Assembly: GCA_963666215.2 (NCBI GenBank) | Contig: CAXWPL010000005.1 | Location: 1,312,001 to 1,376,000, forward strand | Direction: 5' to 3' | Origin: Acidobacteriota bacterium | GTDB lineage: Bacteria; Acidobacteriota; UBA890; WLXD01 | DNA: 64,000 nt | In this document: positions 10,324 to 45,690 of the stretch, piece after piece | How the letters are laid out: each line of letters opens with the position of its first letter | Numbering within the stretch: the stretch's first letter is position 1 | Notes under the pieces: model-generated | The model's database searches: none | What the model was told of the DNA's origin: nothing | What the model saw: the letters and a program-made list of their open reading frames with translations, nothing else | Made by a program: the position numbers and the translations under genes

Positions 10324-10327
10324 GGGC

Positions 10328-18763: not shown

Positions 18764-18767
18764 GTGA
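18579..18767 (+). CDS. Small helical ORF overlapping recombinase start
   Basis: QAELF...WRELPATTREAVISLLAQIL; SD ggaggg; overlaps 18760 ATG. Confidence 0.5.
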   Translation: MRHRRAPRVTYQAELFATETDRPNWRELPATTREAVISLLAQILTEQSPPSSPSLAKEGKHE

Positions 18768-20744
18768 GAAGCTCACGGTTCGCCATCTCGAGCGTCGGGC
18801 GCTGATCTATGTGCGCCAGTCGTCGCACCACCAGCTGGTGCACAACACCGAGAGCCGGCGTCTGCAGTACTCGATGGAGCAGCGCGTACGGGACCTGGGC
18901 TGGCAAGAGACCGAGGTCATCGATGAGGATCAAGGGCTTTCCGCGACATCGACACACGGTCGCACCGGGTTTCAGCGCTTGGTGGCCGAGGTTTGTCTAG
19001 GGCGGATCGGTGCCGTAGCAGCGATCGAGGTGTCCCGTTTCGCGCGCAATAACCGCGACTGGCATCAGTTGGTCGAGATGTGCGCCATGGTCGAAACGTT
19101 GCTCATCGATCACGACACGATCTACGATCCTCGTCGAGCGAACGATCGATTGCTGCTGGGTCTGAAAGGCACGATGAGCGAGTACGAGCTGGATCTTCTG
19201 CGCCAACGCTCGGTGGAGGCTCGGTGGGCCAAGGCCAAGCGCGGCGAGTTGGTGATCGAGGCCCCAGTGGGTTTCGTGAAGACCGCGGATCAACGCCTGG
19301 AGAAGGACCCTGACCTTCGCGTGCAGAAGGCCATCGAGCTCGTCTTCACCAAGTTCTTCGAGTTGGGGACCGCTCGGCAGGCCGGGCTGTGTTTCTCGAA
19401 AACGGTGTGGATCTACCCGCGAAACGGCGCGGCGTCGCGGGCTGGGAAACCTGGTGGAAGCGGCCGGCCTATCACGCCGTTATCAGCATCCTGAAAGAGC
19501 CGACCTACGCCGGTGCCTACGCCTACGGCCGTACGACGTCCAAGACCGAGCTCGTCGATGGATCCCTGCGCAAAAAAAAGGGTCGTGCGCAAGCCACTTG
19601 ACGAGTGGACGGTGTTGATCCCCGATCATCACGAGGGCTACATTGGGTGGGATCGGTTTCAGAAGGTCCAACAGATGCTCGATGACAATGTCGCTCAATT
19701 CCAGTCAGCTCGCCGTCGTGGGGCGCCGAAACGGGGAGCTGCACTGCTTGCAGGACTCTTGCGTTGCGGTCGTTGCGGTCGCAAGTTGATGGTCGGTTAC
19801 TCGGGTAAGAATGCCGCGGTCCCTCGGTACCTGTGCCATCGCGCCCGACTCGACCAGATGGCTCCGAAATGCATCTCCTTTGGCGGGCTGTCGGTGGACC
19901 AAGCCGTTGCGGAAGAGATTCTCAAGGTGGTGCGACCCTGCGCGGTCGAGGCTGCGAGGCTCGCGGTTTCGCAAGAGGCACTTCGACGCCAGGAGCGGAT
20001 CCAAGCTCTGTCCATGGAGTTGGAAGCAGCCCACTACGCGGCGGAGCTGGCCCGCCGTCGATACAACGCGATGGATCCCGACAATCGTCTCGTTGCGGGC
20101 GAGTTGGAGCGGCGCTGGGACGAGGCCTTGCAGAAGGTACGCGAGCTGGGAAGAAAGCTCGAGCAAGGATCCTCGGGCGAAGAATCGAGTGCACCGGACC
20201 CCCTCGATTTGGCAGATCTCGAGCTCGACCTCAACCGGGTGTGGAATGCGCCGGAAACGGACCCGCGTCTCAAGAAGCGTGTCCTCCGAGCTTTGATCGA
20301 AGAGATTGTCGTCGACATCGACGCTGCACAGAGTGAGGTCACCCTCGCCATTCATTGGAAGGGAGGGCTGCACAGCGAGCTGCGTATCCCACGGCGCCGC
20401 AGGGGCCAGAGCGCATCGCACACGAGTCCCGACGTGGTCGATGCGATCCGCGAGCTGGCTCGCATCTGCAAAGACCGCTTGATCGCCGGCTACCTCACCC
20501 GTAACGGCCTTCTCACCGCACGCGGGAATCGATGGTCTGCCCTGGCCGTGACCTCCTTGCGCAACAACCGTGGCATACCGGTGTACTCGCCCGCCATACG
20601 CCAGGCCGAAGGATGGATGAATCTGACCGCCGCGGCAGCCCATCTCGGTGTCGCGGCGAAGACGCTACGACGGGCTGCCGAGCGGGGCGATGTACCGGCG
20701 AAACACCCGCTCAAGGACGGTCCATGGGTCTTTAACTGCAGCGA
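18760..20744 (+). pseudogene. Large serine recombinase (frameshifts near 19385 and 19575; truncated by IS5)
   Basis: YVRQSS catalytic motif, SRFARN, recombinase domain YAGAYAYGR, Zn ribbon CGRCG, coiled coil, C-terminal HTH. Confidence 0.85.
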
Positions 20745-21855
20745 GGCGTTGGTGCATGAATCGACTTTGGCCTCGACGGTAGCATCGGTTCGGATGCCGG
20801 TGATTCCGGAGATCGAGGGGGCAGCGCCATGACCGTACGCAAGTCGAGCCGAGTCAACCGCGAGTACAAGACAAAGTACAGAGTCAGGAGGAGGGAGTAC
20901 GAGCGTGGCCTCAGGAGCCGTGGCGATGTCACGATCTGGCTCAGCGAGGCGGCGATCGCCGCGTGGACACCACCGAAGAACGGTCTGCGCGGAGGCCAGC
21001 GACGGTACTCGAACCTCGCGATTCTGACCGCATTGACGCTGCGCGTCGTCTTCCGGCTGCCGCTACGCCAGACCGAGGGATTCCTGGACTCGCTGCTGAC
21101 CTTGATGGACCTCGAGCTCGAGACCCCTGACCACACCACACTCTCGCGCCGGAACCAGGACGTTGAGGTGCCGCCCCTGACCCCAGCCCACGACGGCCCG
21201 ATTCACCTGGTCGTCGACTCGACTGGGCTCAAGATCCTGGGTTCAGGCGAGTGGAATGTGCACAAGTACAAGACATCGAGAAGACGCAGGAACTGGCGGA
21301 AGCTCCACATCGGAGTGGATGACGAGGGCTTCATCGTGGCGGCTGAGCTCACGGCAAGCAGTGGGGACGACGCCTCCACGCTCCCTGCTCTCCTCGACCA
21401 GATCGAGGTTCCAATCCGGCGTTTCACGGCAGACGGGGCCTATGACCACAGGTCGATCTACGATCGGGTCGGGGCGGCCGGTACCGAGGACGTCATGATC
21501 GTGATCCCACTTCGTCGCTCCGCGGTGTCCGCTGCGCCCGCAGATGGCCCGTGGGCGCAGCGAGAAGCGGCTCTTCAGAGGATTCGCGAGGTCGGACGGC
21601 GAGAGTGGCAGAAGGAGTCGGGATACCGACAGCAGGCTCGCGTGGAGAACGGGTTCTTCCGATACAAGTCACTGCTTGGGGACAGCCTCAAGGCGAGGCA
21701 CAGGCAGGCGCAGACGAGAGAGGCGATGATGGGGTGTCACATCCTCAACCAGATGGCCGAGCTCGGAAGGCCACAGTCCTACGCAGTAGTCTCGTGAGGG
21801 AGGGGTCGGGAAAGCGGCCCCGACTCGCTCCCGGGTTGAATCGTGCAACAAAGCC
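20745..21855 (+). mobile_element. IS5 family (IS903-like) element
   Basis: IR ggcgttggtgcatgaatc / gaatcgtgcaacaaagcc. Confidence 0.9.
20829..21797 (+). CDS. IS5 family transposase
   Basis: YERGLRSRGDVTIW, VDSTGLK, ADGAYD, YRQQARVE. Confidence 0.9.
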   Translation: MTVRKSSRVNREYKTKYRVRRREYERGLRSRGDVTIWLSEAAIAAWTPPKNGLRGGQRRYSNLAILTALTLRVVFRLPLRQTEGFLDSLLTLMDLELETPDHTTLSRRNQDVEVPPLTPAHDGPIHLVVDSTGLKILGSGEWNVHKYKTSRRRRNWRKLHIGVDDEGFIVAAELTASSGDDASTLPALLDQIEVPIRRFTADGAYDHRSIYDRVGAAGTEDVMIVIPLRRSAVSAAPADGPWAQREAALQRIREVGRREWQKESGYRQQARVENGFFRYKSLLGDSLKARHRQAQTREAMMGCHILNQMAELGRPQSYAVVS

Positions 21856-32120: not shown

Positions 32121-32663
32121 ATGAAGACAGCTTGGTATCTATCGCTACTCCTTGCATGTGCCATACCTGGCTGGGCGATCCCACCCTTGGTCTCCGGCGA
32201 TGTCCCTACAGCCGATCGAGGCACATACCTTGGGTTCAAGGGGTCGTCGCAACGTTGCCTTGGTGAGCAGAGTGTACAAGCTCATCGAAGACTTCGGCAG
32301 GGGTTCTCCAGCCGAGGGTCTTGCGGGGTCGGCCGTTGAGGGCGAGCGCGACCCTCGAGGTGAAGCTACCGACCGGCTATTCCGATCGGGGCTGGGGTGC
32401 TGGTGCGGTCAATGTGGATCTGCGTCTCAGGGGAGGATGGGAGTTCGGTCGCGAAGTCTTCTATCTGAACCTTGGGCACACATGGATCGGGGAGGATGAA
32501 GAGCCTAAGAAGAACACCTGGTTCTATGCGGCTGTGTGGGACCATCCTGTAGGGGAAAGGTTGCGGTTGTTGACCGAGCTTTACTGGGAGACCGCCAAGC
32601 TCGGTGCTCCAGACAGGCTGGCGGCATCGGTTGGAGTCAAGTGGCGCTTCCCTCAGCGCCAAC
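32121..32663 (+). pseudogene. Fragmented beta-barrel transporter gene
   Basis: IPPLVSGDVPTADRG N-terminus and EVKLPTG...FYLNLGH...RLLTELY C-part, separated by an IS30 remnant and cut by IS6. Confidence 0.55.
32230..32345 (-). mobile_element. IS30 family right-end remnant
   Basis: Encodes ALNGRPRKTLGWRTPAEVF...VATTP-stop, then gaacccaag end. Confidence 0.7.
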
Positions 32664-33468
32664 GGCATTGTCAAGTTGAGGCGGTCGTGGTCAGACTGGA
32701 CCGATGAAGAGCGACAAACCCAGCTACTGCGGACACCGGTTCCCGCCGGAGCTCATCACTCATGCCGTGTGGCTCTACTACCGATTCTGTCTGAGCTTCC
32801 GAGATGTCGAGGATCTCATGGCGGAGCGCGGGATCACCGTCTCCTACGAGACGATCCGCCAGTGGTGCTGGAAGTTCGGTACCGAGTACGCCAGAAAGCT
32901 GAAGCGGAGAGAAGGGCGATTAGGTGACACTTGGTTCCTGGACGAGCTCTTCGTAACCATTCAGGGCAAGAGGCAGTATCTCTGGCGTGCCATCGATCAG
33001 GACGGAGATGTGATCGACATCCTCGTGCAGCCACGCCGTGATCGAAAAGCAGCGGAACGCTTCTTCCGCAAGCTCTTGAAGGGCCAAGGGGCAGAACCGG
33101 TGCTCCTGGTGACCGACAAGCTGAGGAGTTATGGCGCAGCGCATCGGACCACCATGCCCTCCGTCAGGCACGATACGAGCCAGTACGCGAACAATCGGGC
33201 TGAGGTCTCCCATCAGCCGACCCGGCAGCGAGAGCGACAGATGCGCCGCTTCAAGTCGCCCGGCCAGGCGCAACGATTCCTCTCCGCTCACGGAGTCATC
33301 CAGAACCTTTTCCGCGTCGGGCGGCACCTCGTGAGCGCAGGCGACCACCGTACGCTGAGAGATCGTTCTTTCGGCGTCTGGCGTCGGGTGACGTGTGCCT
33401 GCTGAATCCGAGCTGGCACCTTCGACAGCGCCACATCTCACTTCAAACGAAGACAACTTGACAGTACC
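32664..33468 (+). mobile_element. IS6 family element (CDS 32704-33405)
   Basis: IR ggcattgtcaagtt / aacttgacagtacc; intact 233-aa transposase. Confidence 0.92.
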
Positions 33469-33579
33469 GTTGACATGAGAGAACTCTTAGGCACGGGTAC
33501 CGCTGCTGCCGGTGTCGCTGACGATCGAAGTCGGTAGCTCCTAGAAGGCAAGCCTGCGGAGGCTGAAGAGGAGCTGGGT

Positions 33580-33645
33580 CCGTCGGCAGCCTTCCGCCAC
33601 CCGTAACGGTGATGGAGTCCCCCGAGACGAGGCATTGCCACGGTC
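33580..33645 (-). pseudogene. Integrase-core transposase C-terminal remnant
   Basis: MPRLGGLHHRYGWRKAA, compare 3980-5008. Confidence 0.55.
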
Positions 33646-33678
33646 TTCGCGGTCGGCGACGGCGCCTGTCCCTCTTCA

Positions 33679-33705
33679 TGTCAACGGCGCTTAGGAAACG
33701 CGTTT
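33679..33705 (+). repeat. 27-bp direct repeat, copy 1
   Basis: tgtcaacggcgcttaggaaacgcgttt; 24/27 identical to 34169-34195. Confidence 0.7.
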
Positions 33706-33888
33706 ATGTAGAGCTCGACATAACGCGCGATTTCTCGTCGCCGTTCACAGCGTTGCTGTGGGTCTTTGGGGCACTTTCGTCGCAGCAGCTCTACGGCCAC
33801 TTCGAGATCGCGGGCGCCTCGGTGACCGGCTCTGAGGAAGCACGCCACAATCCATACACTTAAATATGTCGGCGTTCTTGATGCCCAC

Positions 33889-34140
33889 ATGGAAGTCCAT
33901 TGCATCTACTGCGGGCAGGCGATCAGCGGACCTCGAGCTTACCTGCGGCATCTATGCCGGGACTGCAGTCAGAGAGAACGATACGAGCTAGCCTCCCCAG
34001 GTCCAGGCTTCCGAGACGAGTGCCACCTCTTCTGCCGAAAATGTGGCGTGCGCTTAGGCCGGGACGGGGGTGGAAAGGAGCGACAGGCTCCTTCAGCTGT
34101 CTGCTCTGAGTGCCGGAGGCTGTCAGGCCTGCTCGCCTAG
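33889..34140 (+). CDS. 83-aa multi-CxxC Zn-finger protein, paralogue A
   Basis: CIYC, CRDC, CRKC, CSEC; GPRAYLRHLC shared with 35509-35760. Confidence 0.75.
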   Translation: MEVHCIYCGQAISGPRAYLRHLCRDCSQRERYELASPGPGFRDECHLFCRKCGVRLGRDGGGKERQAPSAVCSECRRLSGLLA

Positions 34141-34168
34141 GCCGAGCGCCCCGCACTTTGGAGGCGAC

Positions 34169-34195
34169 TGTCAACGGCGTTTAGGAAGCGCGCTT
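34169..34195 (+). repeat. 27-bp direct repeat, copy 2
   Basis: tgtcaacggcgtttaggaagcgcgctt. Confidence 0.7.
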
Positions 34196-34348
34196 TCTGA
34201 CCGCCGATAACAGGCGACCGGCTCCCCGATGCCCGAGGGCTGTCCCCACACTTACTTCGGCCGGATGGAGCCTCCCGTTCTCGGTCCGGGCCTGGACGAG
34301 GGGGTAGACTGACCCTCCCTCGCTGACACCCTTGAAAGGAGCATTCCT

Positions 34349-34957
34349 ATGCAGCTCTACACGCTGGTGCACATCTGCTGGGGCCTGCGCCGTTGGCAGG
34401 TCGCAGCCGAAGATCCAAGGGCCGCCGTTGACTGCTGGAAGACCGGAATGGAGAGCCTGGTGCCTTCTGATGATCGACCACCGCTACCTATCGACCTGAG
34501 CGCTCTGCAGCGGGATGAGACCGCCGCATACTGCTGGAAACTCGGGTGGCAAGAGAGGCACTTCTCTGCGAGCAGTCTGCCCGGTGGGCGAGCCGACTTT
34601 GGGCAGGAGGCTCTGGTATGGGTGATCCCGACGCTTCCGACGATCGAAGTAGTCAGCAGCACCAGCGCGGCGGTGTACGTTGAGTGGTCAGCTAGCCACT
34701 ATGAGCATCGGGCAGTTGTAGTCAGGTCGGAGATGTCGATCGAGGAGAGAAGAGAGGCCTACGCGATCCACTCTTCCAGCGGGCTAGGGTTGCTTCTGGC
34801 TACGTCACCATCGTTTGTCTGTGGCCTCTGCAATGGTTCGGGGCGACGGTCGAGTCCATCGGCGCCTTGCTTGTGCCAAGGCGGCAGGGTTCTGACGTTA
34901 CATGGCAGGGTCGCCATCATCCCGGGCAGTACACGCAAACCGCCCTCGTGGGCCTAG
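34349..34957 (+). CDS. Hypothetical protein with C-terminal CxxCxGxG motif
   Basis: SD aaaggag before ATG; CGLCNGSG...CLCQGG. Confidence 0.5.
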   Translation: MQLYTLVHICWGLRRWQVAAEDPRAAVDCWKTGMESLVPSDDRPPLPIDLSALQRDETAAYCWKLGWQERHFSASSLPGGRADFGQEALVWVIPTLPTIEVVSSTSAAVYVEWSASHYEHRAVVVRSEMSIEERREAYAIHSSSGLGLLLATSPSFVCGLCNGSGRRSSPSAPCLCQGGRVLTLHGRVAIIPGSTRKPPSWA

Positions 34958-35508
34958 CCGCACCGATCCGCGCATCCGTTCGATATAGTGACCGGATTTC
35001 CGCAAGAATTAAGTACTGGTACTCAAACTTTAAGATCGCCGGCATTCGCCCAAGGGGGTGACCCACCCGGCGATCGCCCGCGCCCCGCGAGGAGTCCACT
35101 TCGCCGGGATGCGGCTCCACGAATCCCCTGCTTGGATGGCCCCCTGAGTCCTCCTCCGCTTCAGTGGAACGTGTCTCGCACCGACTGCAGTCCTGAATAG
35201 CGAGACCTCGCGGAGATCGTTGGTACTCGCCAGCTCAAGGTCCGGGACTGGTAGTTGAACTCAACGCCGAGGAACGATCCGGTCCGCTCGAGAAAGTGGG
35301 GTCGAGCGCTTGGGCGCCTTTGTTCCGCTCGACAACTTCTACGAGTCCATCACTTTCGTCGAGGGATTGTGGTCCTCGAAACCACTGGCGCTTACTCGTC
35401 GCGTCAAGGCTTCGCCGAAGACATAGCCGGTCCCTGCGCCCCCAGAAGGTGGCTGCGTGCCTAGGAAGACAGGAAGAATTAAGTAGTCCGCGGCCCAGGG
35501 TGGTCTTT

Positions 35509-35760
35509 GTGAAAGACCACTGCCCGAGTTGCGGCCTGCCGATCGACGGTCCCCGCGCATACCTTCGGCATCTCTGTAGGTCCTGCAGCCGCAGAGAGCG
35601 CTACCAGCTGACGTCATGCGGCCTTAACCTGCTCGGCGAGCACTATCTCTTCTTCTGGAGGTGTGGGACGAGGCTTTGCGCCAAGGGAGCCGCGACTGCG
35701 TCGCGACCGAGCTCTGCAGTTTGCCCGGAGTGTCGAACGCTCTTCGGCCCGCTAACCTGA
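35509..35760 (+). CDS. 83-aa Zn-finger protein, paralogue B
   Basis: GTG start; CPSC, CRSC, CPEC; same length as 33889-34140. Confidence 0.7.
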   Translation: MKDHCPSCGLPIDGPRAYLRHLCRSCSRRERYQLTSCGLNLLGEHYLFFWRCGTRLCAKGAATASRPSSAVCPECRTLFGPLT

Positions 35761-36050
35761 AGGGCCCCTCGTGGCAATCGGCATGCGGTATCGAAAGATT
35801 CAAATAGTCGACTGATCTCAGCAACTGTAAGAAGGGTGTGCGCCACAGTGCTGCCCGGCATCCACACACCTGGCTGGCGCCGGCCTCCCGCCCTTCCCTT
35901 GAACGATTGAAGTGGCCGATGCCCACCGAATCTGCGGAAACAGTCTAGTGCCCGGACGGGGCATTCGACCCTTTTCGCAGATCGGCGGGGACAACGGCAG
36001 GCAAATCAGGCGAGCACCCATAAGGGGCCAGCGCCCACTCCCAGTGAAGC

Positions 36051-37247
36051 ATGAAACGAGATCCCTATAATCACAAGCGTCGCTACCTGGCTTGGAAGAT
36101 GTCGACAAGAGAGGGCATCCCAGATCTCACAGTGGCGGATTCTCGCCTGGTTCTGAACTTCATCGGAGACATGGAAGTGGGCAGAAACATCGGGCGGGGA
36201 ACGAAGAAAGGGCCGAGAGGCTATGCCCGCCTCAACAACCTTCGGCACCGACTCGTCTTCTTAGCGAAGCAGGCTGAGGCTAGGTACCTACTAGGCGGGA
36301 TGACTGAGGTCAATGATGAGCAAATTCACGACCTGTTCGGGAGCATGCGTAGCGGAGCTCTCCCGCGTCGAGATGGCCGTCCCTACCGATCTACTGGGGA
36401 CTACGTGAAGGTCTTCAAGGCGTTCTGGCACTGGCACATGAAGGTGCAACGAAAGCGGGGTGTAGAGATCCCCGACATCTGCCTGGATCTGGACCCGCGG
36501 ACCGAGAAGCCCCCTTGGGTCTATCTGACGTACGAGCAAGTCCAGTTGCTCAGCCAGCACGCGAAACATCGATATCGCGTACTAATGCTCTTCCTGTTCG
36601 ATTCGGGCATCCGGAGCCCCACCGAGCTAGTGAACGTCCGCGTCAACGATCTTTCACACGACTGTTCGAAACTTCAGATCCGGGAGGAGACGAGTAAGAC
36701 GTTCGGCCGGAGAATCAATCTGCTCCTCTGTAGAGACCTCCTGAGGAGCCATATCAACAGTCACCAATTGTGTGGCGACGACTACGTCTTCCCGATCAAT
36801 CCCACCGTCGTCAACCGTTACTTCAAAGACCTCGCACGACGAGTGCTGGGGGATGGGCGAAGCCCTGGAGGGTCATGTTTTCCCAGGCTCACGCTCTACG
36901 ACTTCCGGCACTCGGCGGCCTGCTATTGGCTGGCTCGCTACAAGTCCGAGTCAGCCTTGAAGTTTCGCTTCGGCTGGAAGCGCGGCAGCATGATCGAGTA
37001 CTACACGCACTTCCTCGGCATGACGGACACAATCACGGAGGACGATCTCCACATCGGTGAAGAGCGAACGGAGATGGAGAAACGCCTGGCCGACGCCGAA
37101 AGCTGCAGGACCCTCCTAGAGGAACGACTGGAGGCCATGGAGGGGCAGATGAAGCGGATGCTCTTGGTTGTCAGGAAGGTCTCGGACGGGGCGGACCTCC
37201 CTCTTTCAGTGGAGGCTGCTTTGCCTCACCGCAGCTCTCCTTCCTGA
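36051..37247 (+). CDS. Tyrosine recombinase/integrase with C-terminal coiled coil
   Basis: DSGIRSPTE (R), SKT (K), YDFRHS, FGW, IEYY (Y). Confidence 0.88.
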   Translation: MKRDPYNHKRRYLAWKMSTREGIPDLTVADSRLVLNFIGDMEVGRNIGRGTKKGPRGYARLNNLRHRLVFLAKQAEARYLLGGMTEVNDEQIHDLFGSMRSGALPRRDGRPYRSTGDYVKVFKAFWHWHMKVQRKRGVEIPDICLDLDPRTEKPPWVYLTYEQVQLLSQHAKHRYRVLMLFLFDSGIRSPTELVNVRVNDLSHDCSKLQIREETSKTFGRRINLLLCRDLLRSHINSHQLCGDDYVFPINPTVVNRYFKDLARRVLGDGRSPGGSCFPRLTLYDFRHSAACYWLARYKSESALKFRFGWKRGSMIEYYTHFLGMTDTITEDDLHIGEERTEMEKRLADAESCRTLLEERLEAMEGQMKRMLLVVRKVSDGADLPLSVEAALPHRSSPS

Positions 37248-37373
37248 GGCGAACGACCTTCTTCTCGAGTAGCGCTAGTTCGCGCAGAATCAGTTCTCCT
37301 AAGTCTCCGCGAGAGGCGCCTGATTGCGTATCTGGGGGCACGTTCGCCGGCGACCGGTTCTGTTGGCGAAGGC

Positions 37374-37559
37374 TCACGGGATCCTCGGTGGCATGGACGG
37401 CGTGTCTTCGAAGTGCCGGACGAGACAGGCCTCCGAACATAGGACAATCGGCTTATCCAGAGGCACAAAGCCCCGGGGGCCGAGAACGCCGTGCTGGCCG
37501 ACGACGACGTCGTCGCCTAGTTCTATCTTTGCTCTGCAATAGGTACATCTGCTTGCCAT
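37374..37559 (-). CDS. 61-aa TRASH-like Zn-binding protein
   Basis: CTYC...CSEAC. Confidence 0.6.
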   Translation of the reverse strand: MASRCTYCRAKIELGDDVVVGQHGVLGPRGFVPLDKPIVLCSEACLVRHFEDTPSMPPRIP

Positions 37560-37818
37560 GGTGCTCGTCAGTTCGCCGTTTCCTAAGTACCTTGAACTGA
37601 GGCCCCGGCTGCAGATGACCGCTGCCTGAAGAACGAGGGCTCGGCTCGGCCCAAGGGCCTGTTACCACTGCGAAGGAGAAACACTTAAGTACTCGCCCCC
37701 ACTCCCGTTGTCTACCGGCGAATCGGTTGAACCCTCAAGAGAGTGACGCGGCTGGAGAGGCCTCATGGGCTTTTTGCAGACGAACGTCCGACATCCAGCC
37801 AGAATCCGCCGGCTGACG

Positions 37819-38383
37819 ATGAAAGCCAACCTTGCTAGCGATAGCTCTCCTCCTACTGAACGCGCTCAATTGGTGGAGGACGCGCTAGGCCAGCTGGCAG
37901 ACCCCCTCACTGTGAAGCAGTTGAGTCGGAGACTGTCGCTGTCGCTCGACGAGAGTGGATCAGCGGTGCGAACGCTACGCCGGCGGGGGTTGGTTCGTTG
38001 CCTCAACCCTGAAGCTCGGCGAAGCCGCGTTTACCGGAGGTGCTCCCTAGAACATCCCGAGCGTGAGACTGCAGTGGCCCAGGATTGGGGGCTCTACGGT
38101 TGGGTCTGTTTCAGTCACCGCGCCGCAGTTCTGAAGGCTCTTGATCAGCCGAGACGGCCCGCCGACATCAAACGTCGAGCGCGCTTCTTGGACCCCGAGT
38201 ATTCGAATGAGCGCCAACAATGTTCGCGATGTCATCCGGCTATTCGTCGAGAAGGGCGTTGTTCGCCCTGTTCGGCAGCGGATGGAAGCTCATCCGCGAT
38301 ACGAGTTGACCGACATAGGCGCCCGACTCCAGCGACTGTTGCACGTTGCCGACGGCAGGAGGGATAGTGGATCGGCCGCCTAG
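37819..38383 (+). CDS. Tandem winged-helix protein (frameshift near 38196)
   Basis: PLTVKQLS...GLVRCLNPEARRSRVY and HRAAVLKAL...SANNVRDVIRLFVEKGVV...YELTDIG after joining two frames. Confidence 0.7.
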
Positions 38384-38792
38384 CCGTGGGCAGGGGCGGT
38401 CATCACCCTTGCGCCGCCTTGAGAGCCAAGCACGGCGTATCGCGTTCGAAGCACTCACTCAGCCGTGTGACGACGAGATCGCACTGGCGCTCGCCGCAGA
38501 GATCGGCTCCGCTCTCGAGAGGCTTGACAAGGAGAGGGCGCTCTTTCTCCACCTCCGGGATTCCATCGTGGCCGACGAGTGCATTGTAGGAAGCGACCTC
38601 GCGTTGATCCGTCAGATGTCTCCCCCCTTTTCCAAGGAAGAGCTGGCTTTGAAGAAGAGCCTACTCAGCCTTGCAAGTGAGCGACGTCGACTCGCACTTC
38701 AGGAAGCCGAGGCCCTGCAGCGGGATGGACTCGAACTCCTCTCGCTAGTTCAACGCTACAACCAGGTGGTTCCTCTTGATGAAGACCGATGA
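38367..38792 (+). CDS. Coiled-coil hypothetical protein
   Basis: SD ggaggg plus GTG; overlaps both neighbours; helical heptads. Confidence 0.55.
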   Translation: MDRPPSRGQGRSSPLRRLESQARRIAFEALTQPCDDEIALALAAEIGSALERLDKERALFLHLRDSIVADECIVGSDLALIRQMSPPFSKEELALKKSLLSLASERRRLALQEAEALQRDGLELLSLVQRYNQVVPLDEDR

Positions 38793-40731
38793 CTTGCTCA
38801 GAAAACTCGCACCGTTGGAGCCTCGTCGGGTGCCTCGATGGAGACGTGCACTGGACTTTGGAGACGCCAAGACAGTCTCCCTCTTGGAACGTCAGATTGC
38901 CTTCACCGCATATCGACGGCTAGGAGATCCCAGGAAACTCTTCCTGTCGCTGCCTTCGAAGAGAAAGATCGCTGGGCCGATCCGGCTCGGCATGGTCCGG
39001 TACGAAGAGCCCAAGTGGCCGGCCGGCCTCAGGGATTCAGAACTCCTTCAGAACGTAGCTATCTTCGGCCGGTCCGGCGCCGGCAAGACCAACGTCTGCT
39101 TTCATCTTCTCGAACAGCTGGCCCGGAACGAGATCCCGTTCGTCTTTCTGGACTGGAAGCGGACCGGCCGACACTTGATTCCGCTGCTGAAAGGGAAGGT
39201 GAACGTTTTTACTCCCGGTCGCAGCCTTGCGCCGTTCTCGTTCAATCCGCTGCTGCCTCCACCGGGCCTCGAATCCGAGGTCTACACGAACCTCGTAGTC
39301 GACGCGCTTGGTGACGCCTTCACTCTGGGGGACGGTGCTCGCAGCCTCCTGCAACGGGCTCTCCTCGACGAATTCAACGAGGAGAGAGAGCCAACTCTAA
39401 AGTCGCTGCAGGAGAGACTGCGCTCAATTCCCGATCGAGAGCGGGTGAGGGGGTGGAAGATCTCTGCGATGCGGGCTCTCGAAACTGCATCTCTCGCTGT
39501 GCCCAGCACGGACGGATTTACGCAGGCCCGAATGGTCGCGAACCTCCTAGAGAGTAGCTCCATCATCGAGCTCGACGCTCTGTCGGCGGCGAACAAGAGA
39601 TTCCTTCTGCCTCTGCTTTCGCTATGGATTTACCACGCGCGCCTCGCGGCTCCTGAGCGGGAAAAGCTCAAGCTTGTGTTGGTGGTGGAAGAAGCACACC
39701 ACGTTCTTCACCACCACCGAAACCAGCGCGAGTCTGTGATGGAGATGCTCCTCCGGCAATGCCGTGAGATTGGCATGGCGATGATCGTTGTCGATCAGCA
39801 CCCGCACCTCATGTCTAGTGCTGCACTCGGCAACACATACGCCAGCATCTGTCTCAACCTGAAGGACCCGAAAGACATGGCGAAAGCCGGGGCTCTTTCG
39901 TTGATGAGCCCGGACGACGCCAAGCACTTCAGCCGGTTTCCTGTTGGGCGCGGAGTTGTGAAGCTCCAGGACCGATGGCACGAGCCCTTTCTGGTCGACT
40001 TTCCGCTGGTTCCGATCAAGAAGGGGTCCGTCACCGATGAGAGGCTGAGGACCCATCTGCAGAGGAAGGAGGCGCTCTCGGCACCCGCATCCCCTCAGAA
40101 GTCTGCGAACGACGCTCTCGCGCGCTCTCTTGTGCCTGATGAGGCCTGCGAAGAGCTGTCTGCGCTTCTACTCTCTGACATCTATGCTTTTCCGAACGAC
40201 GGTGTTGATAGCCGATACAAGCGCCTCGGTGTGTCCGCCGACAAGGGGCATCGACTCAAGCAGAAGATGCTTGCGCTAGGTGTGATTGAAGAGCAAGAGG
40301 TCTCGGTGGGCTCGACCCGGCGGAAGGTGCTCCGGGCCAATTCGAAGTCCCGATGCTCGAACCGCAGCAAAGGCGAGAGGCCCGAGTCCATTGCCCACGA
40401 GTTCTGGAAGCGTCGCTACGCCGAACGGTTTCGTTGCGAAGGGTACGACGTTGCTCTCGAGGCTGAGCGCAACGAGGGGCGGATGGACGTGCTAGCGAGT
40501 CGGGACTCCGAGAGCGTTGCCATCGAGGTCGAGACTGGCTTGAGCGATGTCTTGCACAACGTCAGGCAAGACCTGCTCTTCGGCGTTTCCCGGGTGGTCG
40601 TCGTTGCCACCGCTGAGAAGGCGTGGGCGAGAGTCCAGCGACAGTTGGAAGGGGCGGGGCTCCTCTCGGGTCGTGTGGACTTGGTTCTTCAGGACGGAAT
40701 CGGAATGTTTGGCGGTCCACCAGACGGTTAG
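38779..40731 (+). CDS. HerA/FtsK/VirB4-clade (DUF87-like) ATPase with C-terminal PD-(D/E)XK-like domain
   Basis: GRSGAGKT, FLDWK, LVVEEAH, QCREIG...DQ; C-terminal ESIAHEFW...MDVLA...AIEVETG. Confidence 0.8.
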   Translation: MKTDDLLRKLAPLEPRRVPRWRRALDFGDAKTVSLLERQIAFTAYRRLGDPRKLFLSLPSKRKIAGPIRLGMVRYEEPKWPAGLRDSELLQNVAIFGRSGAGKTNVCFHLLEQLARNEIPFVFLDWKRTGRHLIPLLKGKVNVFTPGRSLAPFSFNPLLPPPGLESEVYTNLVVDALGDAFTLGDGARSLLQRALLDEFNEEREPTLKSLQERLRSIPDRERVRGWKISAMRALETASLAVPSTDGFTQARMVANLLESSSIIELDALSAANKRFLLPLLSLWIYHARLAAPEREKLKLVLVVEEAHHVLHHHRNQRESVMEMLLRQCREIGMAMIVVDQHPHLMSSAALGNTYASICLNLKDPKDMAKAGALSLMSPDDAKHFSRFPVGRGVVKLQDRWHEPFLVDFPLVPIKKGSVTDERLRTHLQRKEALSAPASPQKSANDALARSLVPDEACEELSALLLSDIYAFPNDGVDSRYKRLGVSADKGHRLKQKMLALGVIEEQEVSVGSTRRKVLRANSKSRCSNRSKGERPESIAHEFWKRRYAERFRCEGYDVALEAERNEGRMDVLASRDSESVAIEVETGLSDVLHNVRQDLLFGVSRVVVVATAEKAWARVQRQLEGAGLLSGRVDLVLQDGIGMFGGPPDG

Positions 40732-40903
40732 TAATCATGAGTCCTTTCGCAATAACCGAATAGGAAGGGAGCCGACGATGTCGCACTTCTGCAGCAATGC
40801 TCCCCCTGAGCGGTAGACTCGGCCGGTCTTTCCGGAATCAACGGCTACCAGAGTTCGCAGCTAGGGTAAAGGCCTAGGCTCGCGGCGGCAGAGGGCTTGC
40901 AGA

Positions 40904-41284
40904 TTGGCGATCGAAACTGGCTGGGTCAAGCCTCCAAGCAGCGCCTCAGGCCTCGATCATCTAGGGGCCCAGGCGCCGTGCATCAACTTGTACGGACAGC
41001 TTCTTCCCGGCATCACAAATGTGACCGACCGGGTTCGCTACTACTCTCTGTACCCCTGGCTGATCTGGGCGATCGACAAAAGCGGTTCCGTATCGACCAA
41101 GCGCGAGTTCCGCCGGCTTTTTCGCCGAGCCGACTGCTTGCTGACTCTCATCGCGGAGGCGATTGCCGGCTCCACTGTTTCTTCGACTGCCTCAGACGCC
41201 GAAGCCGGCGACAATAGTGCTTCTTCCGAGCGGGGTGGACGGCTCGGAGGTGCCCCGTGTCGTTGTGCACCGAGTTGGTTCTAG
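40904..41284 (+). pseudogene. N-terminal fragment of DUF6361-like protein
   Basis: GLDHLG...LYGQLLPGITNVTDRVRYYSLYPW, then degenerates. Confidence 0.45.
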
Positions 41285-41401
41285 CGTCCGCTTGGCCGAT
41301 TTTGGCGTGTCGGGGGACGAGTTTCCTTGGGCGAAGAATCACGTTCGGCAGCTCCGCTTGCCGAACTACCAGTTCCGGTCGTCGTTGCTTGGAGGCTGAA
41401 G

Positions 41402-41995
41402 CTACCCGTGTCGCCCTCCCGGGATCTGCTCCTTCTCAAGGGTGAGCTGAGCGCCGCGTAGGAGCGTGCGCTCCCAATGGTCGGGGGTATAGAACGCCGC
41501 CGGGGTCATCTCTAACTCGGGGAAAGCCTCAATCAGCTTGGCTCGGTAGGCGTCCGCGAGGGCCATCATCTCTTCCGGCGTGAGCGACCCCAGCCTGCGC
41601 ATCAGATCCTGCACGTGGCGTCTCAGTTCCTTCTGCTGGATGCTTGCGTTCAGGGTATCGAGGAGGTGGCGTGTCGTCCGGCCATTCGCTCCGCTCATCC
41701 ACTCATAGGCGGCAATCTCTGGGATCGCGGACCCTCTTCCTCGAAACACGTCGAACAAGAGCTCGCGGGCCCACTTGGTGTCCCAGGGGTCAGGCGGAAT
41801 GAGCCCGTATTCCGCCCGATGTAGATGCCTCACGAAGCGGGTCACTTCGCTGAATAGCTCGCCTGAATCTGCCGGGATCAGGCACTCTGGAACATAGTCT
41901 TCGCGGATACGCTCGTACTTGAGCATCAGGTCCCGAAGGACTGTCCAGGAGAGCTTCTGGCGGATGAGGTCCAGAGCCTCGGTGACCCTGCTCAC
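41402..41995 (-). CDS. Hypothetical helical protein, paralogue 2
   Basis: GTG overlaps upstream stop (GTGA); similar pattern to 41992-42576. Confidence 0.7.
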   Translation of the reverse strand: MSRVTEALDLIRQKLSWTVLRDLMLKYERIREDYVPECLIPADSGELFSEVTRFVRHLHRAEYGLIPPDPWDTKWARELLFDVFRGRGSAIPEIAAYEWMSGANGRTTRHLLDTLNASIQQKELRRHVQDLMRRLGSLTPEEMMALADAYRAKLIEAFPELEMTPAAFYTPDHWERTLLRGAQLTLEKEQIPGGRHG

Positions 41996-42576
41996 ATCTT
42001 CTTGTGGATCCCGACGACCTGCTCAACGAGCGCTCTGTAGTAATCCAGCGCCGCACGGGTGTTCCAGGCGAAGGTGTCTTCGTCGAACTCGTGGTCGGCA
42101 CGGGTCAGGATCGACCCGAAGCGGTTGTAGAAAGCCCGGGAGAGTTCCTTGCTGTGTTCTTTCGAGAGCACATCAATGTGTTCATGGAAGACGTCGTCGA
42201 GGTGGTTGCCGAGCGCTCGCCGCTTCAAACCGTCGGCGATCTCGTTCAGGATTCCCCTCATGCCACCGTCTGTGCCGTCGTGCGCCATCTGTTGGGCGCG
42301 AGGGTAGCCCTCCTGGTAGCGATCTTGTTCGTAGGCCCGATCGAGAATGCCCTTGGCGGTGCCGAAAGCCGCTGAGTCGCTCGGCTCTCCCTCTCCGGTG
42401 CTTACCATGTGGTGCTTCACGTAGGCGGTCACGATGTACTTGAACTTGTCGTGTTCCTCCACGATCATCTGAGGGGAGTTGAAAGACTCCCGCGCCAGGT
42501 CGTGCTGAGACAGCACTGACCTATTGATGTAGTCCTGGCCGATCAGGTCGAGGATCTTGTCGAGATCAACGCTCAT
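41992..42576 (-). CDS. Hypothetical helical protein, paralogue 1
   Basis: MSVDLDKIL start overlaps ATPase stop; HDLARESF, AHDGTDGGMRGILNEIADGLK. Confidence 0.78.
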   Translation of the reverse strand: MSVDLDKILDLIGQDYINRSVLSQHDLARESFNSPQMIVEEHDKFKYIVTAYVKHHMVSTGEGEPSDSAAFGTAKGILDRAYEQDRYQEGYPRAQQMAHDGTDGGMRGILNEIADGLKRRALGNHLDDVFHEHIDVLSKEHSKELSRAFYNRFGSILTRADHEFDEDTFAWNTRAALDYYRALVEQVVGIHKKM

Positions 42577-45046
42577 TGTTGTCGGGATCCGGCTCGAAAC
42601 GGTCGTATACGCGGGGTCTTCTGGGGCGCATTGTATCGGCAGTTCCTTCTGTCCGCACTGAAGCGTAGTGTGTTTGAGCATACTCCAGCGCGGCGCGAGC
42701 GGGATCTCTGACTCTCCGGAGCGTTGTAAGTTCGGTCTTCAGTGAAGCGACCTGAGTGCCACTAGCGACGAAGGCCTCGCCGACGCCGAGCTGGCGGAAC
42801 GAGGCCTCGTCAATGGATCCGCCCAGGATCCGCCGGGCGTGCCGGTAGTCCTCTTCGGTGGGTCGGAAGATAATTTTGGTGGCGGCGTTCCCAATTGCCT
42901 GGGCCAGAGTGCCACGGAGTTGCCCTCGCTCTTGGTGAGCCAGAACCACCGCGAGCCCGTACTTCCTACCCTCGGCAAGGATGTTTGCGATGGTCGCTGC
43001 CTGGAGTTCTTGGAACTCGTCGATGTAGAGGGGAAACGGACGTCGTTCCTTCTCGGGAATGTCGGCACGTGTGAGCGCTGCCCTGAAGATGAGCGAGATG
43101 AGAAGGCTTCCCACGAAATGTGCGTGGTCGGCACCGATACGTCCCGAGGCCAGGTTGACGAGGACGATCTTGCCTTCATCCATCCATTCGCGGGGATGGA
43201 GCGAGTTCTCTTTCTGCCGAAACATCGCGCCGAGCTGGTCGTCGAGAAGGATCCTGCTCAGCTTGTTGCGGACACTCGCAAGCTCTGAGGGGCTGAACTT
43301 CGGTAGCTCTTGCGTGAGGAACCGCTGAACCTGGGAATTCGGGATCGTCTCGAGGGCCGTTTGTCGGAGGAGCTCCCCTTGAGAGGTCTGGCCTGCGAGT
43401 TCGGCGAAGTCCTCCAGCGTTCCTCCCAGTTGGTGAACGGTGTAGGCCAACATCCGAAAGTTGTGCTCCATTCGGGGACCGGAAGTACTCGTCTGGGCGA
43501 GAAAGGCGCCGGTAATATCGTCCGCCAGCTTTCCGGCCGGCAAGTCGCTCTGGAGGGGATTCCACCGTGGCACCAACCCCTCTTCCGAGAACGAGATGTA
43601 GATGAGATCCGGCATCCTCCCTTCCGGCAACCTGGAGAGAATGTCCATGCACAGATCGCCGTGGGGATCAACCAAGCAGAACCCAAGCCCACCGGCCGCA
43701 TCGTCGCAGGCCATTCGCTCGATGAGCTTCGACTTGCCCATTCCGGTAACCCCTGCCACGTAGGTGTGACGGGCTCGGACATTCATCGGAATCTCGACCG
43801 GCCGGACCACGCCGGCGAATTCGTTGTAGCCGAGTTGAGTAGAGGGGGCCGTCCTGTCCGGCGGGTGAGGGCTCCACTCGAGCCCTCGGCGTTGCTGGAA
43901 GGCAGGGATCATTGCGAGCGAACGAGCGTTCGGGATGTGAACGAGGCTGGCAACCTCCTGAGAGGTCAGCATCAGACCCGGCCGGTGGGTCAGACGCCTG
44001 GCCACCATTCGCTCCAGTTCATGAGCGGAAAGCGGGCCAGAATTCTCGCTGAGACTCAACGTCCTGAAGGCCCGGTTTCCGAAGCGCAGCAAGCCGATAG
44101 CTGGAGCCATACCCTGGGCGAAGGCGCTTCTCGCGGTCTGGTTGTCGGACCAGATGGCGTACCTGGCGACCACGGCATAGAAGGCGACATCAATACGGAC
44201 TTTCTCGGGAACCGCTGCATCAGGCAAAGGAGGCATGATCGCGTCGTACTGGAACTTGGAAGACAGTCCGCCGAGGTGAGACAGGTGAGCGGCACGTTCC
44301 TCAGCGAGTGAGAGTTTCTCCACGTTGTAATGCCAGTCATGAGTAGGGTCTGCCGGACAGATCAACACTTGAAGAATGCCTCGGTCAGAAGGCAGCAGAG
44401 CACCAATAGCAGATGCAGCAATACCAAGAGGGCTTGCACCTTCTCTACCGAGAAGTGTCAAGCATCGGTGATACGGGCCGACCGGCACAATCTCGTGGAC
44501 TGCAGCAGGAGGGGTCAAGGGAAACGGAGAAGTCTGCTGTCGAAGTCGTAGGGCAGGGAAGTGTCCAAGGACTGCAGACCGGAATCCTGCTTCCTGGTCG
44601 AACGGAACACCAAACCGAACGGAGACGTGTCCACCAGCTCCGAATAGCTCGAAGGCAAAGGTGCCACGCAAGACCGAGAGTGCCCGCAGCAGAGTCTCCA
44701 TCCAGCCTATCGTTAGGAGATCCTCTTCGGCTGGGTAGAGATCGAAGGTGATGTAGTCAGTGGAAGCCGACGGCTGGTTGTCGTCGAGCGACGTGCCTAG
44801 TCGTGTGCTGCCTTCAAGGATCAGCTTCGAATCGAACGGCATGTAGGCCGGCTCCAGGGCACAGGGCTCGGAACAAAGGAATGGCGAACAGCCTTTACTG
44901 CTCTCTTTCTCCAGGGCCTGCTCCAGGAGGCCGACTCCGATGGCGTTGAAAGCCTTGTGGATAACTACGCTTTGAGCGTTTCTCATGGGCTCTGCCTTCG
45001 AGGGCTCGTCCTTTGTGGCGTCTCCGAAAGGAAACTCTGCGGACAA
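42566..45046 (-). CDS. VirD4/TraD/TrwB-like (coupling-protein type) ATPase with long N-terminal domain; start uncertain
   Basis: HTYVAGVTGMGKS, VDPHGD, LYIDEFQ, EGRKYGLAVVLAHQ. Confidence 0.85.
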   Translation of the reverse strand: MSAEFPFGDATKDEPSKAEPMRNAQSVVIHKAFNAIGVGLLEQALEKESSKGCSPFLCSEPCALEPAYMPFDSKLILEGSTRLGTSLDDNQPSASTDYITFDLYPAEEDLLTIGWMETLLRALSVLRGTFAFELFGAGGHVSVRFGVPFDQEAGFRSAVLGHFPALRLRQQTSPFPLTPPAAVHEIVPVGPYHRCLTLLGREGASPLGIAASAIGALLPSDRGILQVLICPADPTHDWHYNVEKLSLAEERAAHLSHLGGLSSKFQYDAIMPPLPDAAVPEKVRIDVAFYAVVARYAIWSDNQTARSAFAQGMAPAIGLLRFGNRAFRTLSLSENSGPLSAHELERMVARRLTHRPGLMLTSQEVASLVHIPNARSLAMIPAFQQRRGLEWSPHPPDRTAPSTQLGYNEFAGVVRPVEIPMNVRARHTYVAGVTGMGKSKLIERMACDDAAGGLGFCLVDPHGDLCMDILSRLPEGRMPDLIYISFSEEGLVPRWNPLQSDLPAGKLADDITGAFLAQTSTSGPRMEHNFRMLAYTVHQLGGTLEDFAELAGQTSQGELLRQTALETIPNSQVQRFLTQELPKFSPSELASVRNKLSRILLDDQLGAMFRQKENSLHPREWMDEGKIVLVNLASGRIGADHAHFVGSLLISLIFRAALTRADIPEKERRPFPLYIDEFQELQAATIANILAEGRKYGLAVVLAHQERGQLRGTLAQAIGNAATKIIFRPTEEDYRHARRILGGSIDEASFRQLGVGEAFVASGTQVASLKTELTTLRRVRDPARAALEYAQTHYASVRTEGTADTMRPRRPRVYDRFEPDPDNNER

Positions 45047-45479
45047 GTAAGTCGTGCACTATCCAGCACGACAAGTCGTTGCGGCTTGGGCGTTGGGAGC
45101 GCCTCGGGTGGTTCGTTCGACAGACCACCTAGCATGGCGAGACATCTCGGCCGGCGCGAAAGGAGAAGCGCGAGCCCGGGCAGCAAGCCTCGCTTCTCAC
45201 AGTCCTTCCCTCTCGAAGCCAGCTTGGTCACTCACCCAGGTTAGGGCTGCGCTTGGTCGCTGTAAACCTGGCCATGGCAGAAACCGAGGAGAAAGTCGGG
45301 GATCATTTCTGGTAGGACTTTCGCGGCGAGGTGATCCCTCTTACATTCCAAGGACTATCTCCCGAGTTCGTCGTTTTGTTGCTCGCGGACCGACGACTGA
45401 TTACCCCGCACAACTCGGGAGGTACGGACCCTCACTCGTGGGCAACCCTGATGACGGCCGAGAGCCCCTAGACGCGGAG

Positions 45480-45690
45480 CTCAACGTGCTGCGAACCGTA
45501 TTCCGGCTCACACCCAGCTCTACAGCCACCGAACGCCGGCTCCGGCCCTCGATCAGCACCTTGTAGCGGATAACATGAACCTGATCCATGCTCAGCATCC
45601 TTCCTCCAGTAGCTCAGTCCGTAGACAAGACCAAGCTACCGGCGTTAGGGCCGGGGGTGGATCACTTTCTAAACGTTGGGTGGATCAATT
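45480..45690 (-). mobile_element. IS21 left-end remnant with istA 5' fragment
   Basis: MLSMDQVHVIRYKVLIEGRSRRSVAVELGVSRNTVR; repeated gatccaccc end motifs. Confidence 0.7.

Follow-up and report, generated by a model that had tools for sequence, protein, structure and literature searches.

A 64,000-nucleotide stretch of contig CAXWPL010000005.1 (Acidobacteriota bacterium, assembly GCA_963666215.2), hereafter the window, carries an integrated mobile element at positions 33415-45521, and short A/T-rich boxes stand at an almost constant distance before three of its genes. These boxes are promoter-like signals of the mobile element, not chance A/T runs. The best explanation, and by a modest measure probably the right one, is that they are core promoters for leaderless genes, used by the host RNA polymerase together with a factor encoded by the element. 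A preliminary description of the window had taken the same boxes for archaeal-style BRE (B recognition element)/TATA motifs. Their positions are given below; classes 1 and 2 are two kinds of promoter defined further on, and PWM stands for the position weight matrix of the family.

33860-33866, plus strand: class-2 TATA-like box TTAAATA, ending 22 nt before ATG 33889
35479-35485, plus strand: class-2 box ggaagaaTTAAGTA (TTAAGTA), ending 23 nt before GTG 35509
37582-37593 in plus-strand numbering, minus strand: aaggTACTTAGG, part of the class-1 promoter of the gene zn61, ending 22 nt before minus-strand ATG 37559
35009-35015, plus strand: TATA-like box gcaagaaTTAAGTA, with a PWM score of -5.8 and so not class 1
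35799-35806, plus strand: box TTCAAATA / cgaaagaTTCAAATA
37685-37691, plus strand: box gaaacacTTAAGTA in the divergent region between zn61 and the winged-helix (wHTH) gene, whose own promoter has its box 1 another 32 nt downstream

Reading the sequence confirmed the coordinates of the first three boxes and their spacings of 22, 23 and 22 nt to the starts at 33889, 35509 and 37559. That the three genes have no evident Shine-Dalgarno (SD) site, as had also been claimed, agrees with the absence of GGAG, GAGG and AGGA from all three 22-23-nt leaders; SD sites are present at neighbouring genes (aaaGGAGc before ATG 34349 and GGAGAGG before ATG 37765). The further copies listed in that description, at 35009, 35799 and 37685, are present, yet no start codon follows 20-23 nt downstream of any of them, and these boxes may drive leadered or non-coding transcripts.

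The boxes are enriched over shuffled controls. The window has three copies of TTAAGTA where 0.54 would be expected, and 5 of 100 shuffles had as many; for TTMARTA there are 11 against 4.8 (2 of 100 shuffles had 11). Over both strands of the whole genome (4.65 Mb) there are only 14 copies of TTAAGTA, three of which lie within 2.7 kb here, all on the plus strand. At least three of 14 copies fell within 2683 bp in 0.03% of random placements (p ~3e-4), and at least four of 22 TTAA[AG]TA copies within 3832 bp in 0.001%, which places the clustering at p ~3e-4 to 1e-5.

Relatives of the element were sought through its ATPase. We found 820 homologous proteins at E<=0.001; the 119 non-self homologues listed show 46-60% identity across 86-100% of the query, and the named ones among them belong to Planctomycetes or Brocadiales. 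A scan of one genome per species gave 379 relatives, from which 80 loci were kept for analysis. Going by record titles, most come from Phycisphaerae, Pirellulales, Kuenenia or other Planctomycetota, and a few are labelled otherwise. The closest relatives are metagenome-assembled genomes (MAGs) of Thermoanaerobaculia (Acidobacteriota), and one carrier is a cultured strain, Bythopirellula polymerisocia Pla144, whose locus L063 has two class-1 sites. Some of the related elements sit in contigs of 0.5-4.4 Mb labelled bacterial. Across the loci a gene order recurs, integrase / zn61 (reverse) / wHTH / ... / p130 / ATPase, hidden Markov models (HMMs) detecting wHTH in 56, zn61 in 42 and p130 in 62 of the 80 loci; the families shared across these loci include no sigma or polymerase gene. 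Distribution is sporadic: of 301 genomes sampled from Planctomycetota the ATPase profile matched 11, and of 301 from the window's own phylum it matched 4, the latter including the window's genome and one flagged unpublished. Neither the phage collection nor IMG/VR contained the ATPase, and the plasmid collection gave one weak partial match. Our literature searches returned no description of the element family and no relevant start-site or promoter study in Planctomycetes. The family consists of integrative elements, most of them in Planctomycetota and some in Acidobacteriota, and is undescribed as far as those searches show.

Upstream of its genes, the family repeats one promoter layout, which we call class 1. 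A logo of 69 sites reads gCAAAT CAGTTSAA (-39..-32), then an A/T box yTWWWWAA (-29..-22), then Y-12/T-10 and the ATG, with C at -12 in 33, T at -10 in 41 and C at -1 in 33 of the sites. The A/T box is far more informative than the -12/-10 element, and the stretch between the A/T box and the ATG is not conserved. No more than 10 of the 69 sites have A at -11, among them 1 of the 28 from AT-rich loci, and T is not preferred at -7, so that there is no TANNNT; GC-rich sites show C-12 in 23 and T-10 in 26 of 41, often as CGTC. In a distance test over the 80 loci and the window, with box 1 defined as CRGTKSA plus one base and each ATG opening at least 50 codons, 59 sites had the ATG 31 nt from box 1 and 18 had it at 32 nt, the background being about 6 sites for each distance. 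Class-1 sites precede at least seven unrelated families (zn61 at 20 sites, wHTH 13, p130 9, integrase 7, ATPase 6, ArdC-like 5 and methyltransferase 2). At a threshold of 16 bits there were 134 sites in 55 of the 80 loci, against 3 in shuffled loci; among 99 independent sites found with a PWM limited to -45..-20, a pyrimidine occupies -12 in 74 and T occupies -10 in 54, and many ATGs lie at 30-35 nt.

The window holds three class-1 promoters, one of them degenerate.

37580..37605, minus strand: class-1 promoter of zn61, with box 1 CAGTTCAA (plus 37592-37599) and box 2 gtACTTAGGa; box 1 stands 32 nt before the ATG; score 8.1 bits, at an offset of one base
37718..37743, plus strand: class-1 promoter of wHTH, with box 1 CGGTTGAA at 37724-37731 and box 2 ccctCAAGAGAG; 33 nt to ATG 37765; 19.6 bits
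36001..36026, plus strand: degenerate class-1 promoter before the integrase, GCAAATCAGgcgagc..cATAAGGG; PWM score 5.2

Upstream of zn61, about 20 loci share the arrangement aaatCAGTTCAA-N4-ATTTAAGy-N19-ATG, and aaggTACTTAGG of the window is the orthologous copy. The wHTH promoter is the sole match of at least 12 bits in the window and the second best of 22 genome-wide. At the window's integrase, box 1 lies 36 nt from the ATG, not 31; orthologous integrases keep an intact box at 31 nt. Because the 4470 box-1 matches in the host genome form no 31-nt peak, and because the genome holds only 22 PWM matches of at least 12 bits, the class-1 motif is element-specific and not a host signal. Upstream of 1952 long host open reading frames (ORFs) no A/T peak appeared near -25, a rough control given its crude start calls. 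In short divergent regions, such as that of locus L004, the promoters stand back to back and leave no room for others. Palindromic GTCAC..GTGAC sites also occur in the divergent region.

The sites picked out in the preliminary description match a second class, [GC]AAA-N3-TTAAATA with the ATG 21-22 nt on, which is supported by the spacing of its copies. In loci with a GC content of at least 0.5, the 46 TTAA[AG]TA sites are followed by an ATG at 21 nt in eight cases and at 22 nt in four, with 0-2 at other distances; over all loci the counts are 10 and 5, with 0-4 elsewhere. Visual reading of the sites gave at least six class-2 copies that lack box 1 and have [GC]AAA just upstream, and the window's prefixes ggaagaa, gcaagaa, gaaacac and cgaaaga look like the [GC]AAA type. 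Boxes of the form TTAAGTACTKG, similar to gaaacacTTAAGTA, occur in the same intergenic region of the related loci L003 and L053. Two of the window's class-2 boxes precede a pair of related genes.

33889..34140, plus strand: zn83-1, an 83-aa double zinc-ribbon gene without an SD site
35509..35760, plus strand: zn83-2, an 83-aa double zinc-ribbon gene with a GTG start

These are paralogues, 53% identical and under purifying selection (pN 0.30, pS 0.74). The 120 nt upstream of the two genes are only 23% identical, so the box that these otherwise unrelated regions share has been kept by selection and is not the residue of a recent duplication. We found no zn83 relatives in metagenome contigs and none in the protein collection within the lengths searched.

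Three features bear on where transcription probably starts. Among the 60 sites whose ATG lies 31-33 nt from box 1, an SD site occurs in only 3, and SD-bearing leaders appear only from 44 nt on. At several zn61 genes, an SD site or a conserved AACAAC...GGAGGTG leader begins about 32-33 nt from box 1. Upstream of the wHTH gene, a conserved leader of about 90 nt that starts with CCAATTGG begins 32 nt after box 1 in seven loci and 33 nt after it in four. This leader (L014:1209-1305, L039:1418-1514, L048:8922-9018 and 10 other loci) contains a 7-bp hairpin with compensatory changes at 5 of 7 pairs, followed by AGGAGGAAGA and then the palindromic TTAGCCGGCTAA; Rfam gave no match in the window or in six related loci with the leader. 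Since the ATGs at 31-32 nt, the SD leaders and the CCAATTGG leader share one distance from box 1, we infer that transcription starts about 32 nt after box 1, which puts it 21-22 nt past the A/T box and at the ATG or no more than about 2 nt from it. Messenger RNAs that start at the ATG would be leaderless and would need no SD site. The archaeal-style layout that had been reported holds as a description: an A/T box at about -29..-22, purines or AA just upstream, T-10 and C-1/A+1, repeated in related loci.

We then considered what could read such promoters. TBP and TFIIB (PF00352, PF00382) were found in none of five bacterial host genomes, the window's own included, and the controls were positive in the four archaea only. 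The sigma-70 -10 hexamer is absent from class-1 sites, as the scarcity of A-11 and the lack of a T-7 preference indicate. TTSAA at -36..-32, its third place alternating between C and G, occupies a -35-like position and has no -10 partner. The sigma-54 pattern (GG-24, GC-12) is not present either, -25/-24 being A/T and C-12 alone being in common. With hosts that lack TBP/TFB, sites that lack a sigma-70 -10 hexamer and a motif that goes unused by host genes, these results point to a putative factor encoded by the element. Such a DNA-binding factor would direct the host RNA polymerase to the boxes. The best candidate would be the conserved tandem wHTH protein, the element's only conserved DNA-binding candidate; a 191-aa member of the family gives an AlphaFold2 model (pLDDT 91.8) with two winged helices, and these two domains could touch box 1 and box 2, whose centres lie about 10 bp, or one helical turn, apart. 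The preliminary description had offered sites read by the element's own regulator as an alternative; this is now the reading we favour, with the factor itself remaining a prediction. Other assignments were tried and rejected: TTGAAC on the opposite strand as a -35 element (no conserved -10 lies 17 bp downstream), an integration host factor site (WATCAANNNNTTR, a partial fit only to the consensus), and the sigma-32 and sigma-28 consensus sequences (spacing or words misfit).

Several points weigh against promoters read by an element-encoded factor. Site finding demanded an ATG and an open frame, which fixes positions +1..+3 of the logo by construction, and the placement of the start site is derived from sequence spacing, a search for RNA runs containing 33500-43400 having listed none. 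The window's five TTAAGTA-type sites score at most 1.1 on the class-1 matrix and hence rest on the smaller class-2 sample. Foldseek matched the wHTH model to generic MarR/ArsR-type regulators only (best E 3e-3), and winged-helix regulators of this type are usually repressors. Co-occurrence of the wHTH gene and class-1 sites is weak: in 36 full-length loci, both were present in 24, wHTH only in 5, sites only in 4 and neither in 3. A factor transcribed from a promoter that depends on it also faces a start-up problem. To our knowledge there is no mechanism by which a bacterial RNA polymerase opens DNA without a -10-type element, and the weak C-12/T-10, often CGT, could be a -10 of extracytoplasmic function (ECF) type, with TTSAA at -36..-32 where a -35 would lie.

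This last point leads to the reading of the sites as promoters of an alternative or ECF sigma factor, or of sigma-70 with an activator, in which box 1 would be the -35, C-12 G/N T-10 the -10, and the A/T box a spacer or bending element. We consider it unlikely. The C-12/T-10 preference of GC-rich sites returns in the 99 independently found sites, and ECF promoters have AAC-type -35 and CGT-type -10 elements, 16-17 nt apart. However, the class-1 sites show no AAC-type -35 and have 19 nt between box 1 and C-12, their -12/-10 element is far less informative than the A/T box, no sigma gene occurs among the conserved families of the element, and a host sigma factor would have to be shared across phyla even though host genes are without the motif. 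A very unlikely alternative is that the boxes are operators of a wHTH repressor, or signals for RNA processing or translation, and not promoters. It draws on the usual role of MarR/ArsR-like proteins as repressors, on the palindromic GTCAC..GTGAC sites of the divergent region, and on the occurrence of the motif at every element gene, as a global silencer would show. Operators, however, need no constant distance to the start codon, and here that distance is fixed within 1 nt at 77 or more sites in seven gene families; divergent back-to-back copies leave separate promoters no room, and the lack of conservation between box and ATG argues against an RNA structure or a ribosome-binding signal. That the boxes are chance A/T-rich words, or that archaeal or other foreign DNA was joined to a bacterial contig in a chimeric assembly, has next to no probability. 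The GC content of the island is 5 points under that of the genome, and its left junction runs through a copy of an insertion sequence (IS) of the IS6 family, where short-read unitigs break without bridging. Against this stand the clustering of the boxes and the recurrence of the motif in related loci. In three public short-read runs from two studies, moreover, a single 12107-bp unitig spans exactly 33415-45521, the island's depth (4.8, 7.6 and 10.7) tracks that of the left flank (4, 6.4-6.8 and 10.6-10.7), and overlapping unitigs chain the island to the right flank. Related elements also lie inside bacterial contigs of up to 4.4 Mb, so the chimera that had been raised earlier is improbable.

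Genuine archaeal-type promoters of archaeal descent, spread into bacteria by a cross-domain element or a recent import, are quite unlikely as well. The geometry fits in many respects. As far as the portions cited describe them, archaeal promoters have an 8-bp A/T TATA box that lies within -30..-20 with its centre near -27; an A-rich BRE precedes it, and an A/T element at -10 and pyrimidine/purine at -1/+1 follow (PMC5316973). In leaderless genes the TA signal stands about 30 nt ahead of the start codon in archaea and, as TANNNT, about 12 nt ahead of it in bacteria (PMC3160421). The promoters of the element share with these an A/T box of about 8 bp within -30..-20, an A-containing element upstream, A/T at -10, pyrimidine/purine at -1/+1, a start codon at the inferred start site and the lack of an SD site. 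Their box, at -29..-22 from the ATG and centred at about -25.5, not -27, fits an archaeal TATA only if transcription starts at the ATG or 1-2 nt before it. Compared with the BRE, class 2 has [GC]AAA upstream at six or more sites, and the AA of class 1 at -33/-32 lies inside a specific 14-nt word, gCAAATCAGTTSAA, in which box 1 (CAGTTSAA) exceeds a short purine-rich BRE in length and specificity. Promoters are kept in 55 of 80 loci, mostly labelled bacterial and with GC contents of 0.35-0.67, cultured Bythopirellula among them, which implies use in bacteria, and the five bacterial hosts lack both TBP and TFIIB. The earlier proposal of a cross-domain element or one of archaeal ancestry stands as to the mobile element; an archaeal origin is possible but not demonstrated, and the family proper is found overwhelmingly in bacterial genomes.

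Archaeal copies deserve separate mention. Two close ATPase copies (L031, 49% identical; L072, 50%) are in archaeal MAGs in which TBP is present, but L072 is a 9.3-kb contig with the element only and no host flank. L031:7700-14900 is an island of GC 0.55-0.60 with a 508-aa integrase, the ATPase and a serine recombinase, in a contig of GC 0.35-0.44 whose flank carries a presenilin-type signal peptide peptidase (SPP) gene; it is possibly a recent import into an archaeon or a mis-join. We rejected L031 as proof of an archaeal host, since its metabolically rich flanks, with tricarboxylic acid cycle genes, are ambiguous in domain and its only attachment-site-like (att-like) repeat is 15 nt long. The ATPase profile further matched 25 of 301 genomes of that archaeal (DPANN) phylum at E<=1e-30, one of them flagged unpublished, and a p130-like ORF lies upstream of two full-length DPANN matches at E ~1e-3 (L088:10203-12349, L089:9045-11439; ATPase about 30% identical). 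The DPANN ATPases, however, reach only 25-30% identity, and neither wHTH nor zn61 nor an integrase adjoins them. The best NCBIfam names are archaeal, CedD for the ATPase and XerA_Arch for the integrase, both far under cut-offs. It is plausible that the ATPase module has a deep connection to archaea, but these data do not demonstrate an element that crosses domains. Separately, the p130-like ORF of L089 has a TATA-like box about 24 nt before its ATG.

Element-encoded promoter selection of the kind we favour can be set beside known systems. In PhoB-dependent promoters, pho boxes replace the -35 element, and the middle and late promoters of phage T4 are likewise activator-defined or appropriated. 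A TetR-family activator with a new promoter motif has been described in acetogens, in the portion of the study cited here (PMC6873888). In activator-defined promoters too, a specific word at about -45..-20 sets the promoter and is private to one regulon or element, and the candidate reader here is a winged-helix protein; those promoters keep a -10 hexamer, unlike the sites described here, and the factor here is putative. Actinomycete integrative and conjugative elements (AICEs) carry DNA translocases of the FtsK/HerA type. So does ICETh1, an integrative element of Thermus, according to the part of its description cited (PMC7767461). As far as these accounts go, they share with the present element a tyrosine integrase, small regulators and an ATPase of the HerA/FtsK superfamily, to which the window adds a TrwB/TraD-like ATPase. 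Within the same bounds they differ in that we recognised no relaxase, type IV secretion system (T4SS) or replication gene here, that the core set matches no library family above cut-off, and that searches of the phage, IMG/VR and plasmid collections did not find the present family, save for one weak partial match in the last. Bacterial leaderless promoters of Actinobacteria and Deinococcus, with TANNNT at about 12 nt, are similar in their fixed distance to the start codon, the lack of an SD site and their bacterial hosts; they differ in that the sites here have no TANNNT (A-11 in 10 of 69) and have A/T at -29..-22, the archaeal position in the portion of the comparison cited (PMC3160421).

A broader claim, that widespread bacterial integrative elements use TATA/BRE-style promoters (with the A/T box some 25 bp ahead of a leaderless start and no -10) without TBP/TFB, is possible, and we put it forward tentatively. 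Bacterial promoters are thought to need a -10-type element near the start, and a TATA-like box about 25 bp upstream is the distinguishing mark of archaea and eukaryotes. The archaeal/eukaryotic rule is the one that 134 or more sites follow, in 55 of 80 loci most of which carry bacterial labels, though the hosts lack the archaeal factors. If the claim is true, either an initiation factor of a new kind, encoded by the element, steers the bacterial RNA polymerase, or the grammar is the trace of a transfer between DPANN and Planctomycetota; confirmed start sites would mean a new form of bacterial RNA polymerase recruitment or a promoter grammar that has passed from one domain to another. The system is small and portable, with promoters of 45 bp, one candidate factor and one cultured carrier (B. 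polymerisocia Pla144), and the work defines an undescribed mobile-element family in Planctomycetota, a phylum with few genetic tools.

The window lies mid-way along a 1.6-Mb contig in a genome of 4.65 Mb, 65% GC and 91.7% completeness. This genome is bacterial: it holds a 16S rRNA gene of bacterial type, and family searches of the window returned DUF1552/DUF1592-type, LysR and SecDF genes and numerous IS genes. The element and its left boundary are placed as follows.

33415..45521: integrated element (the island), about 12.1 kb, GC ~0.60 against 0.65 in the genome, single copy by blastn
32660..33472, plus strand: IS of the IS6/IS240 family abutting the left end of the island, with its transposase at 32704-33405 (Pfam DDE_Tnp_IS240, 7.6e-36)
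32660-32678 and 33454-33472: inverted repeats of that IS

The island combines a tyrosine integrase, boundaries seen in both composition and assembly graph, and a module that recurs in 80 other loci. An attachment-site search found no direct repeat flanking the island, the left end being taken up by the IS, and a tRNA search of the window found none. Library scans of the element's proteins recognised no relaxase, T4SS, mating-pair formation or replication gene, only HerA-like and TrwB/TraD-like ATPases. Because its wHTH gene is frameshifted, its integrase promoter is degenerate and an IS abuts its left end, the island that hosts the boxes is a decaying integrated mobile element. Its genes, beyond the zn83 pair and a 202-aa ORF, are listed here.

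36051..37247, plus strand: tyrosine integrase, 398 aa (Pfam Phage_integrase 3.3e-8; PHROG 1 1.7e-17)
37374..37559, minus strand: zn61, a 61-aa zinc-ribbon protein, conserved core gene, putatively leaderless (tblastn 41/80 loci, HMM 42/80)
37765..38383, plus strand: tandem winged-helix (wHTH) gene, broken by a frameshift near 38200, with the C-terminal part in ORF 38141-38383
38346..38792, plus strand: p148 (family p130/p142), a conserved partner that precedes the ATPase and forms a long helical hairpin, in 61-62/80 loci
38779..40731, plus strand: HerA/DUF87-type ATPase, 650 aa (Pfam DUF87 and AAA_22; PDB HerA 1.6e-7)
41402..45046, minus strand: cargo or transfer module of p197, p229 and an 826-aa TrwB/TraD-like coupling-type ATPase (Pfam TrwB_AAD_bind 2.8e-12)

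Integrase homologues adjoin the module in 13 loci. In the wHTH pseudogene, the conserved C-terminus IRMSANNVRDVIRLF...HPRYELT runs on in another frame, and the WLTxxGxxCQR segment conserved in the family is absent. The core set of zn61, tandem wHTH, p130 and ATPase matched no library family above cut-off. Sequence searches of the PDB gave only weak eL24/MYM-like similarity for zn61 and weak matches for p130, whose AlphaFold2 model is a helical hairpin of two long helices and not sigma-like. The NCBIfam match of the HerA-like ATPase to CedD, at 2e-20, is far under cut-off. Its conserved C-terminal extension looks like a winged helix followed by a PD-(D/E)xK-like domain, as read from the alignment consensus. 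The cargo or transfer module is common to the window and L003 only, among the 80 loci. A reading of the island as a defence system was dropped, PADLOC having given weak mad8/HerA matches only.

Some further features lie on or near the island. Its right edge (45493-45620, 128 bp) has two alleles with 5 differences at about equal depth in the short-read graphs of the three runs; since the assembly has the stretch only once, the alleles appear to reflect strain variation. The first zn83 gene is flanked by the two copies of a 27-nt direct repeat (TGTCAACGGCGYTTAGGAARCGCG) at 33679-33705 and 34169-34195, which are 89% identical; the second copy is part of a 30-nt palindrome. Elsewhere in the window, an IS of two genes (523-aa rve/Mu-transposase-like ORF and 262-aa ORF) is present in two copies 43 kb apart (10265-12933 and 53375-56043), alongside IS5-, IS110-, IS6- and IS3-like transposases. 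A serine recombinase is split into 18760-19494 and 19513-20832. At 6001-7000, GC falls to 0.45 across a NosD/beta-helix gene (5971-7185) with transposase genes on either side.

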